Positions 18,102 to 19,737 are shown, numbered from the whole stretch's first letter. The stretch: 63,216 nt of DNA, filler included, from Stramenopiles sp. TOSAG23-6 (GCA_900128565.1; 16 parts of 16 records of this genome joined end to end with filler, not necessarily neighbours in it); one strand, 5' to 3'. Notes: generated by a model from the sequence alone, not told the origin. A program made the numbers and translations.

Positions 18102-18658
18102 ATGATTACAATAGAAACACGACACGTCAAACAACGACAACAACAACGACGCATACGACAACACTTTATTTTACTTTTAATACTGTCATTCAAATGTGTA
18201 ATACACGCACATAACACCGCTACTTTACAAAATTCAGCCATGGGAACTCATCATGGTGACGTTCTTAGTCTTAGTCTTAGTCGTAGAAAGGAACATTCAA
18301 TATCAGCAACACACGGGGAAATCCCAGAAATATCACAGATGTCAACATCACCACCACAACAAAGTGTAAGTTTTCGAAAAAAAAAATTTTCAAAAATTTC
18401 AAAAAAAAAAAAAATTTCAAAAATTTCGTACCTAACTAACACAAAACGGTAGACAATTTTATATACACTTTGTTCATATAACAGACACATACGGATGTTG
18501 ATGTGAACGAATTGGATGTTATTACAGAATTTCGTGTTTTGACTGGACATCTTTTTGAGGATTTACAAAAAACAGAACTTGATCGATGTACGTGTTTTAT
18601 TATTACTATTTTTTACCAAAATAATATTGTTTTCATACGTAATTTTGTACCTAACACT

Positions 18659-18706
<48 letters not shown>

Positions 18707-19174
18707 TAAAAATTTTTTCATACGTAATTTTGTACCTAACAAAAAAAATTCGAAAAAAAGTTGAAAAATGTTAAAACTATTTCTTCACAAGATATCACTG
18801 CGAAATAATAAAAGTCATGATAGTGTGACCAAACAACTAAGTCGACAAGCACGAAAAACACAAACTGTTTTGAATTCAAATATGCCGAGTAGTAAACTAG
18901 GGTTAGGGTTATTGCAAGAGTTGCGTCATATGAATGAGTTAGGGAGGAAGCATGATCTTTTAATGAAGCTTACTGTACGTTTTTGAAATAAATTTTTGAA
19001 ATTTTTTTTTCATAGTAAAATTTGTACCTAACAAAAAAAAATTTTTTTTTTGAAATATTTTTTCATCCTATAGCAAAATTATATTACTAATAAAGAGGAT
19101 CAAATCCTAAAAGATAAAGAAGAAAAAGATGTGTTAGTAAATATGTTAAGATCTATACAAACATTACTAAATGT

Positions 19175-19226
<52 letters not shown>

Positions 19227-19737
19227 GATGATGATGGTGATGATGGTGATGATGATGAAAAAACACGAAATCATCAAAAATTTAAAAAAATGTCAAAACA
19301 AAATCAAAAACTTCATCAACTTGATGATGAAATAATTGAATCATTTTGGGAAAGATTTTGGCCATATTTGAAAAATGAAACAGAAAAAAAATTCTTTTTT
19401 TTGTACGTGTTTAACACTTCATTTTTTTTTTCATTTTTTTTTTAAATGTTTTTGTAGGTAATTTTGTACCTAACGAAAAAAAAATCAAAATTTTTTTTGA
19501 CATATTTTTTAAAAATACAAAAGTTTTAGTTATTTTATTGCAGCTAAAACAAGTAAAGAAAAACACGAAATTATTGATGAAGTGATACGGCATTTGAAAA
19601 AAAAAAACACAAAAACACATGTGCATCAAAAAATACAGGAATATAATAGAATTCTAAGCCTTGCAGTGCAAGAAGATTCAAGAGTAAAATCATTTAAAAA
19701 ACGTGCAGAAAATATGGCTCAACAAATTGAACAGTAA
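18102..19737 (+). CDS. Hypothetical multi-exon gene; introns 18366-18484 (GT-AG), 18588-18795 (GT-AT), 18975-19073 (GT-AG), 19403-19520/19523 (GT-AA or GT-AG)
   Basis: All four junctions keep frame and each intron carries the GTACCTAAC core; poly-Asp tract at about 19175-19255. Confidence 0.65.

Follow-up and report, generated by a model that had tools for sequence, protein, structure and literature searches.

The introns that interrupt the genes of a 63,216-nt stretch of DNA from Stramenopiles sp. TOSAG23-6 (GCA_900128565.1; the whole stretch is called the window here) belong to one family, begin almost uniformly with GT and end for the most part in AT. They are probably diverged copies of a single introner-like element that brought its own splicing signals, the acceptor lying at a fixed place, the end of a 3' signal derived from that element. 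Four members occur in the gene at 18366-19523, where RNA contigs from seawater place the junctions of one AG-ending and one AA-ending intron. The window is made up of 16 contigs, each about 3.85 kb long, in order of length and with linkers of the form N44-TTAATTAATTAA-N44 between them; its G+C content is about 31%.

Introns were counted as complete when donor, branch box and 3' end could be read without interruption by N, which gave a hand-curated list of 30. An intron with its donor at 59095, which joins an exon to its own assembly duplicate, was dropped before the count, and about a dozen family copies cut by contig ends stand outside the junction counts. All 30 complete introns fit one consensus, GTAYGTTTT ... 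TTTTGTACCTAAC ... AATATTTTTYC-AMAATAMA-N. With the cut copies they provide, within 63 kb, the many similar copies at different intron positions that characterize introners. Twenty of the introns, with 6 nt of flank, can be aligned over their full length; the consensus is exon AT, then GTATGTTTT..ATT.TTTT.AATTTT...TTTTTTTTTTCGTACGAAATTTTGTACCTAAC AAATTTT...TTTTTTGAAATATTTTTCCAAAATACAT up to the end of the intron. CCTAAC is invariant in this alignment, and the variants that end in AG, AA and TT share the same last column.

The branch-point-like box GTACCTAAC occurs in 47 exact copies in the window, where 0.12 are expected, and always inside A/T-rich stretches that interrupt open frames. Each of the 30 complete introns has the box, exact or with one base changed, ahead of a T-rich tract, as in U2-type introns; from its sequence it is a candidate branch site of U2-type appearance. 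In the gene at 18366-19523 an exact copy is located at 19466-19474, with further boxes at 18428-18436, 18647-18655, 18732-18740 and 19024-19032 (all on the plus strand). The branch-box module is duplicated in five introns (18588, 32124, 53848, 58178 and 62510). Contig ends fall close to the box more often than expected: 12 of 30 internal ends are within 110 nt of one, a zone that makes up 14% of the window (p = 5e-4), evidently because the assembler broke at a high-copy repeat. Many copies also have a perfect 12-nt palindrome, TTTCGTACGAAA, before the branch box (e.g., at 13313-13324 on the minus strand), with GTAC again 8 nt later, and in five introns this palindrome module and the branch box stand twice in tandem. 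The palindrome may be left over from machinery of the element, or it may be a donor-like site nested in the intron.

Junctions were placed by a single rule, in which the donor is the conserved GT and the acceptor follows the last family column. A search by open frames alone is too loose, since an A/T-rich intron itself stays open, and it was replaced by tests of donor and consensus end. With this rule the frames join across 27 of the 30 introns, against a chance expectation of one third (binomial p = 1.7e-10). These 27 introns end in AT (21), AG (3, at 18484, 19073 and 25161), AA (1), TT (1) and CT (1). For example, the GT..AG intron at 18366-18484 (plus strand; GTAAGT ... TTGTTCATATAACAG), which is also supported by the family alignment, joins 95 and 74 open codons, and the phase 1 GT..AT intron at 18588-18795 (plus strand; GTACGT ... 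TTCTTCACAAGATAT), which has two branch-box modules, joins 35 and 62. A GT..AT intron at 32124-32303 (plus strand) joins 95 and 48 open codons. At 25161-25278 on the minus strand, 99 and 61 open codons are joined by removal of an AT..AG intron (ATACGT ... TTTTTTCACAATACAG) in which A replaces the donor G; this could be a real AT..AG intron or an assembly base error. An intron at 25665-25767 (minus strand), with a 1-nt insertion in its spacer (TTCCAAAAGTTAAT), joins 61 and 99 open codons when its end is placed after the final AT.

Protein profiles continue across several of the AT-ending introns. In a protein kinase gene the Pkinase profile reaches 118 before the GT..AT intron at 13467-13561 (minus strand), the split codon is 119, and the next exon begins at 120. 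Across the GT..AT intron at 32586-32753 (plus strand) of an EXS-domain gene the EXS profile runs to 195 and then from 196, and the Mito_carr profile is continuous within one residue across the intron at 2099-2011. The GT..AT intron at 53848-54011 (plus strand) of RIO2 is demanded by the frame of the conserved C-terminus (the ..SGW end, as in homologue P0004). From the frames, the continuity of the Pfam profiles and the homology to two RNA-proven introns, we infer that the AT ends are true cut sites. Single-exon protein searches for spliced database proteins found none.

The two RNA-proven introns come from seawater metatranscriptomes, two runs of which hold small parts of the stretch; their contigs were placed on the contig that carries 18366-19523. 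An X1 RNA contig of 179 nt joins 18974 to 19074 unambiguously and with no mismatches (the shorter side is 52 nt), so that a GT..AG intron is removed at 18975-19073 (plus strand; GTACGT ... TTTTTTCATCCTATAG). Another X1 RNA contig, of 174 nt (128 + 46, positionally unambiguous), joins 19402 to 19521 and removes a GT..AA intron at 19403-19520 (plus strand; GTACGT ... TATTTTTTAAAAATACAA), with a consistent frame. The terminal AA at 19520 is read from the window DNA, from which the expressed population differs at 2 of 128 exon bases. This intron ends in the last column of the family, and an in-frame AG at 19522-19523, 3 nt downstream, is unused. No RNA contig bridges 18366-18484 or 18588-18795, which is evidence neither for nor against their removal; one X1 contig ends 5 nt into 18366-18484, with 36 unmatched letters beyond. 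Joints seen at 16700-16935 were discounted, as they fall in leucine-rich-repeat paralogues with foreign letters between both sides. The summed depth of RNA contigs over 18608-18865 and 19382-19510 is 23-41 in introns versus about 5-7 in exons, and loose ends of RNA contigs over these introns resemble other family members; the libraries therefore contain unspliced family sequence, or DNA, from many loci.

The unspliced material, together with a fragmented assembly that holds duplicate contigs and with three introns at which the frame breaks, might suggest that the whole family is an artefact, either transposon insertions in dead genes or assembly chimeras that are never spliced. That is very improbable: two clean spliced RNA joints largely refute it, and the frames kept in 27 of 30 introns and the continuity of the protein profiles speak against it as well.

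The acceptor of these introns is not found by scanning for the first AG. When the search begins at least 8 nt past the branch A, the first AG falls on the junction itself in 2 of the 27 frame-consistent introns; in 7 it comes before the junction and is passed over, and in 18 it comes after. Only 12 of the 27 have this AG in frame, which is no better than chance (p = 0.15 versus 1/3). AG dinucleotides are not depleted between branch box and junction (9/1088, compared with 17/1318 in the upstream half of the intron; p = 0.32). The U2-type acceptor, AG and usually the first after the branch site, is thus not what is seen here: AG ends are found in 3 of 27 introns, and RNA shows an AA acceptor despite a nearby AG. 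About four AT dinucleotides per intron also stand unused between branch box and junction. Since both these ATs and the AGs are skipped, neither AG nor AT alone marks the site, which must be given by an extended signal or by a measured position.

An earlier note on this DNA had anticipated part of this. It held that no scanning for the first AG takes place, proposed that skipped AGs be counted between branch point and acceptor, and named those at 18790-18791 and 32297-32298 as passed over because they give the wrong frame. The count of seven introns with a skipped upstream AG agrees with this, and the two AGs, 4 nt before the inferred junction of 18588-18795 and 5 nt before that of 32124-32303, are indeed out of frame, as is a third at 18451-18452 that is skipped by the intron at 18366-18484. 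Its AG acceptor at 19073 is the one joined without mismatch in RNA. The span that it gave ends at 19523, on an AG, but the RNA joint of 19402 to 19521 puts the end of the fourth intron at 19520, on AA.

The same note proposed a ruler, in which the junction is measured off at 9 nt from the C of a TTTTC box, across an A-rich spacer, with a flexible final dinucleotide. Boxes of the form TT+C+ were searched within the last 32 nt of each intron. The distance from the last box to the inferred junction (n = 30) is 9 nt in 20 introns, 10 nt in 4, 11 nt in 1 and 12 nt in 1, and 4 have no box. The observation made in the note is confirmed. All three AG introns (TTC-ATATAACAG at 18484, TTTC-ATCCTATAG at 19073 and TTTTC-ACAATACAG at 25161 on the minus strand) have the 9-nt distance, as claimed; the AT introns, said to share it, do so in 15 of 24 cases, and the rest have other distances or no box. 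A strict 9-nt ruler from the C is rejected on two grounds. The RNA-proven AA intron has TTTTTT without a C (three more introns are without a box), and in the intron at 25767-25665, with its spacer insertion, the position 9 nt from the C is out of frame and that at 10 nt is in frame, so that the junction follows the intron end.

What stands of the proposal is the box and spacer as parts of a longer conserved signal, in which nothing singles out the C as anchor. Over the final 20 nt the consensus is A A T A T T T T T Y C A M A A T A C A T, and every position carries information. Among the 27 frame-consistent introns, 26 have A at -9, 22 have C at -10 and 25 have A at -2; 23 end in T, 3 in G and 1 in A. 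The flexibility thus resides in the last base; the base before it is nearly fixed. The two exceptions at -2, ending in TT (24387) and CT (33643), both have an in-frame AG 6 nt downstream, found within that range in 1 of 25 other introns (Fisher p = 0.009), and these two introns may fall back on the downstream AG. In the gene at 18366-19523 the signal (AATATTTTTYC-AMAATAMA-N) occupies 19054-19073, and further blocks of it lie at 18465-18484, 18776-18795 and 19501-19520, all on the plus strand. The distance of 9 nt would be constant because box, spacer and junction are parts of this one signal; a contiguous conserved 20-nt 3' signal cannot be told apart from a ruler that starts at the C.

As all the introns are homologous copies of one family, the constancy of the spacing is partly inherited. 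It could even be wholly so, if the copies were recent and had few insertions or deletions, in which case nothing in the 3' block would be read beyond the cut site, and the AG and AA ends would be single substitutions in the last column of an alignable family. This is improbable in view of how the rest of the intron has decayed. Pairwise identity is 0.98 in the branch box, 0.85 in the donor block, 0.74 in the block before the branch box, 0.75 in the 3' box and 0.64 in the spacer, compared with 0.53 and 0.56 in the two intron middles and 0.26-0.38 in the exon flanks. Insertions or deletions affect the last 21 columns in 1 of 20 aligned introns, and the stretch from branch box to 3' box varies widely in length. 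The 3' block is better conserved than the middles and has few indels, and it is therefore under selection; ancestry alone is insufficient. The four or so other ATs skipped in each intron also require that some extended signal mark the site.

A different reading of the same block makes the A at -9, directly after the TTTTC box, the branch point, so that the acceptor would follow from a short fixed distance to the branch, with a free end, as in U12-type introns or in the fused branch/acceptor motif of Trichomonas and Giardia. This A is found in all 20 aligned introns and in 26 of the 27, C precedes it in 22 of 27, and GTACCTAAC lies at a broad range of distances from the junction, with 18 to 120 nt from its A. 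The termini GT-AT, GT-AA, AT-AG and GT-AG also resemble those that the U12 machinery tolerates (PMC1557818). We nevertheless consider this reading improbable: the donor is GTAYGT and not RTATCCTT, the surroundings of -9 do not match TCCTTRAY, other spacer positions are also mostly A so that -9 stands out little, and GTACCTAAC, the best conserved block, already has the look of a U2-type branch site.

The main rival to a fixed site at the end of the 3' signal is that the cut is placed by pairing of the two ends: the six terminal bases of the intron would pair with the last two exon bases and donor positions +1 to +4, in a helix left over from the inverted repeats of the element. Exon AT plus donor (ATGTAT..TTT) has its reverse complement, with a 2-nt gap, in the 3' end (AAAATACAT). 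For the six named pairs in 20 aligned introns, 76.7% of the cells pair, versus 70.6 +/- 1.6 after shuffling (0/500 shuffles reach the observed value), although the sequences are related and shuffles therefore overstate the signal. The covariation score is 0.19 versus 0.09. The last intron base can pair with exon position -2 in 18 of the 20 aligned introns and in 23 of all 27 (18.7 in shuffles, p = 0.018), and all four introns whose last base is not T have a base other than A at exon -2 (Fisher p = 0.004); this association could simply reflect copy age, AT/AT copies being young and the others old and diverged. The ends of both RNA-proven introns are complementary (CT/AG and TT/AA), and their minimum-energy folds close with the end-pairing helix, but the fold energies are ordinary (z-scores of -0.2 and -1.55) and RNAalifold finds no consensus structure for the family. 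End pairing is missing in 4 of 8 informative introns, and U1 and U6 would have to compete with the helix for access to the donor. On balance, end pairing is unlikely to set the cut.

The favoured explanation, then, is an element of about 100 nt that would bring along the complete set of its splicing signals: the donor GTAYGTTTT, a branch box TTTTGTACCTAAC like that of yeast, and an unbroken 20-nt 3' signal in which AATATTTTT is followed by Y-C and this by nine A-rich nucleotides, AMAATAMA-N. In the second step of splicing the cut would fall at a fixed place, the end of this signal, where -2 is A and the last base is free (mostly T, G or A in some), with AG neither sought nor needed. The 3' signal would at the same time be the inverted-repeat partner of the donor end. 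Our guess is that it is read by a changed U2AF-like protein. Rfam and tRNA scans of the window gave no match, and thus no small nuclear RNA gene was seen there. More broadly, the major-type spliceosome of a marine stramenopile lineage may have given up AG recognition, so that position within a 20-nt signal inherited from an invading element defines the site, A plus any base is accepted, and most introns are GT..AT; we put this forward tentatively, at a little under an even chance.

We infer that the element was once mobile, and the introns probably represent an old introner-like family. Exon AT and intron-final AT occur together in 18 of 27 introns, as a target-site duplication might leave them (a nineteenth AT-flanked intron ends in TT), but AT is self-complementary, and the variant cases are complementary and not direct repeats. 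The putative terminal inverted repeats comprise about 6 bases (exon AT + GTAT versus ATACAT) plus TTT versus AAA after a 2-nt gap; they pair more than shuffled ends do, but are short and AT-rich. A metagenome scan with AAATTTTGTACCTAAC gave at least 118 loci, and among the matches listed all were single chance matches in unrelated contigs. One family copy, at 30800-30875 on the minus strand and outside any clear reading frame, has its 3' part replaced by a G+C-rich palindromic stretch (..cccctagggggaaatccccc..), and may have been struck by another insertion.

A number of points weigh against an introner-like element with a fixed cut site. All of the data come from one 63-kb contig chain and the intron list was curated by hand. 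The RNA junctions are only two, neither of them AT, from a single run and a population that diverges from the window by 0-2%. For two of the 27 introns that fit (24387 and 25665) the end was fixed after the frames had been seen; when these are counted as failures, 25 of 30 frames join (p = 2.4e-8). For 24387 the fitting end is the ungapped consensus position, one base beyond the end first set and already picked by the consensus matcher, and the fitting end at 25665 was placed after the 1-nt insertion. The frame is kept in none of 33294-33365, 55586-55782 and 55917-56025, where GT..AT is off by 1 or 2 nt, and neighbouring donors and acceptors tried for the three gave no provable solution. In the window there are no near-identical copies beyond assembly duplicates, no clear extragenic copies and no transposase, and the terminal complementarity extends over only about 6 to 9 bases. 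Finally, 19 of the 27 introns follow an exon that ends in AT, and for these the spliced product is identical for GT..AT and AT..AC.

The ends themselves favour the first of these two registers. Of the 27 introns, 26 begin with GT, 25 have A at +3, all 27 have G at +5 and 26 have T at +6, as expected of a U2-type donor. When the register is shifted by 2 nt, AT is found at the 5' end in only 19 of 27 and AC at the 3' end in only 16 of 27. Because the donor is uniform, the shifted ends are far less so, and both RNA-proven homologues begin exactly at GT, GT..AT is preferred and AT..AC is rejected as a general rule; single introns could still be AT..AC.

Some features of the three frame-breaking introns may be added. 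The intron at 55917, which has GTGT at the donor, fits with the GT two bases upstream; the exon before it has the motif ..GVASTKAF.., which we take to be GlmS-like, and the long open frame after it has no Pfam match. The intron at 33294 is without the entire T-rich box, and that at 55586 has A for G at +5.

The window contains a range of eukaryotic genes, for RIO2, an RRP6-type exonuclease, RING, leucine-rich-repeat (LRR) and EXS-domain proteins, a protein kinase, a mitochondrial carrier and MCM. Contigs are repeated exactly in two places: 3980-7854 is the same as 7955-11829, and 35697-39545 is the same as 39646-43494 and 43595-47443. The assembly is evidently not de-duplicated, and copy counts from it need care. 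An unbroken open frame of at least 957 codons at 35697-38567 (minus strand) encodes a Lys/Glu-rich protein with the look of a coiled coil and no Pfam match; it is intronless over 2.9 kb, in contrast to neighbouring genes with about one intron per 300-600 bp. A telomere-like dimer, CCCTAACCCTA, usually after AAA or TAA, occurs in 11 copies versus 0.01 expected in the window (18898, 24198, 25595, 27373, 27477, 27499, 33159, 33763, 54834, 60304 and 60319). Some copies are in frame within coding exons (e.g., the one in the third exon of the gene at 18366-19523, which gives Leu-Gly-Leu-Gly when read on the opposite strand), and two lie inside the intron at 60296-60418. The dimer may be a regulatory telo-box or a small insertion.

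The effect of such introns on gene annotation is visible in RIO2. The nearest named protein to the RIO2 open frame is a EukProt coding sequence, identical except for two internal gaps, whose source name begins GSMAST32, a label that suggests a marine stramenopile of the MAST-3 kind; a protein encoded on a Logan contig matches the frame with 100% identity. Two database RIO2 gene models read through the intron at 53848-54011 to a TAA stop in the branch box. As these models run into that stop, the gene catalogues of abundant uncultured marine grazers are likely to be truncated wherever introns of this kind occur. The database proteins end in ..AARAEEC(T/M)FSL(Y/H)YFRSTFCT, which is the translated intron 53848-53893. 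The EukProt model is without two internal pieces of open frame that look like falsely predicted introns. Strains differ at donor +4: the sequence implied by the Logan protein is GTATGT, and that of the window is GTACGT. For one assembly of the marine stramenopile (MAST) group MAST-3, complete protein matches were too few to train a gene finder, and the main text of that single-cell genome paper, supplements aside, is silent on intron ends (PMC5778133). No description of the present introns was found in the literature, including the main texts of MAST genome papers, whose supplements may bear on the point.

Nearly all eukaryotes end their introns in AG. The large exceptions, Fritillaria, Amoebophrya and the euglenids, have an altered 5' end as well, or no fixed terminal dinucleotide. 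In the present family, which probably represents a new form of non-canonical splicing, donor and branch box follow the textbook and the acceptor rule alone differs, which isolates the question of how the site is found in the second step and provides a natural system for testing ideas on U2AF, Prp8, Slu7 and end pairing. If the explanation is true, site choice in the second step can be re-wired without touching donor or branch site, and many genes of such uncultured protists are mis-annotated.

Introner elements are known from Micromonas and Aureococcus. Like the family described here, they supply many introns that are copies of a short repeat with its own splice signals; their ends are inverted repeats, to which the short terminal complementarity seen here may correspond. 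Introners have been surveyed (PMC12130899; 10.1101/2022.06.06.494994). The introners described are GT/GC..AG, as opposed to the mostly AT 3' ends found here. Families with unfamiliar splice sites were inspected by hand and kept only with support from transcript alignments (PMC12130899). Surveys of this kind rely on existing annotation, and here the annotation reads through the introns.

The non-canonical introns of Fritillaria have a MITE (miniature inverted-repeat transposable element) origin, and end pairing has been proposed for the non-conventional introns of euglenids. In the tunicates, as in the window, most introns break the GT/AG rule; theirs are removed by the major-type spliceosome, altered U2AF function has been invoked, and the 5' ends of these repeat-derived introns vary (PMC13326754), whereas the 5' GT is kept here. 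Amoebophrya is another marine protist in which most introns escape GT-AG, and its introns are likewise repeated; they have inverted-repeat ends and short repeats spanning the boundaries, and a hairpin has been proposed to bring the exons together (PMC7789003). Both ends vary there, with no clear dinucleotide signature, and U1 parts went undetected. The present introns differ from these in that 26 of 27 begin with GT, the branch box is canonical, and the last base alone varies.

A distance rule for the acceptor of U12-type introns was reportedly worked out by Dietrich and Padgett. The likeness of the present family to that class lies in an acceptor set by position and not by AG, with free terminal bases; AT-AN and GT-AT introns are productive, and GT-AT and AT-AA are listed in Table 2 of the source (PMC1557818). 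The donor and branch motifs of the family do not match those of the class. In place of the U12 donor RTATCCTT, +5 and +6 are G and T and not C and C. U12-type introns have TCCTTRAY at 10-20 nt from the acceptor and no pyrimidine tract; here the last 20 nt are AATATTTTTYCAMAATAMAN, the branch box is 18-120 nt upstream, and a T-rich tract is present.

In Trichomonas and Giardia the branch site and acceptor are fused in one motif, ACTAACACACAG, which ends in AG and contains the branch point. The family described here resembles these introns in having a long 3' motif of fixed length, and differs from them in that their motif ends in AG and includes the branch point.

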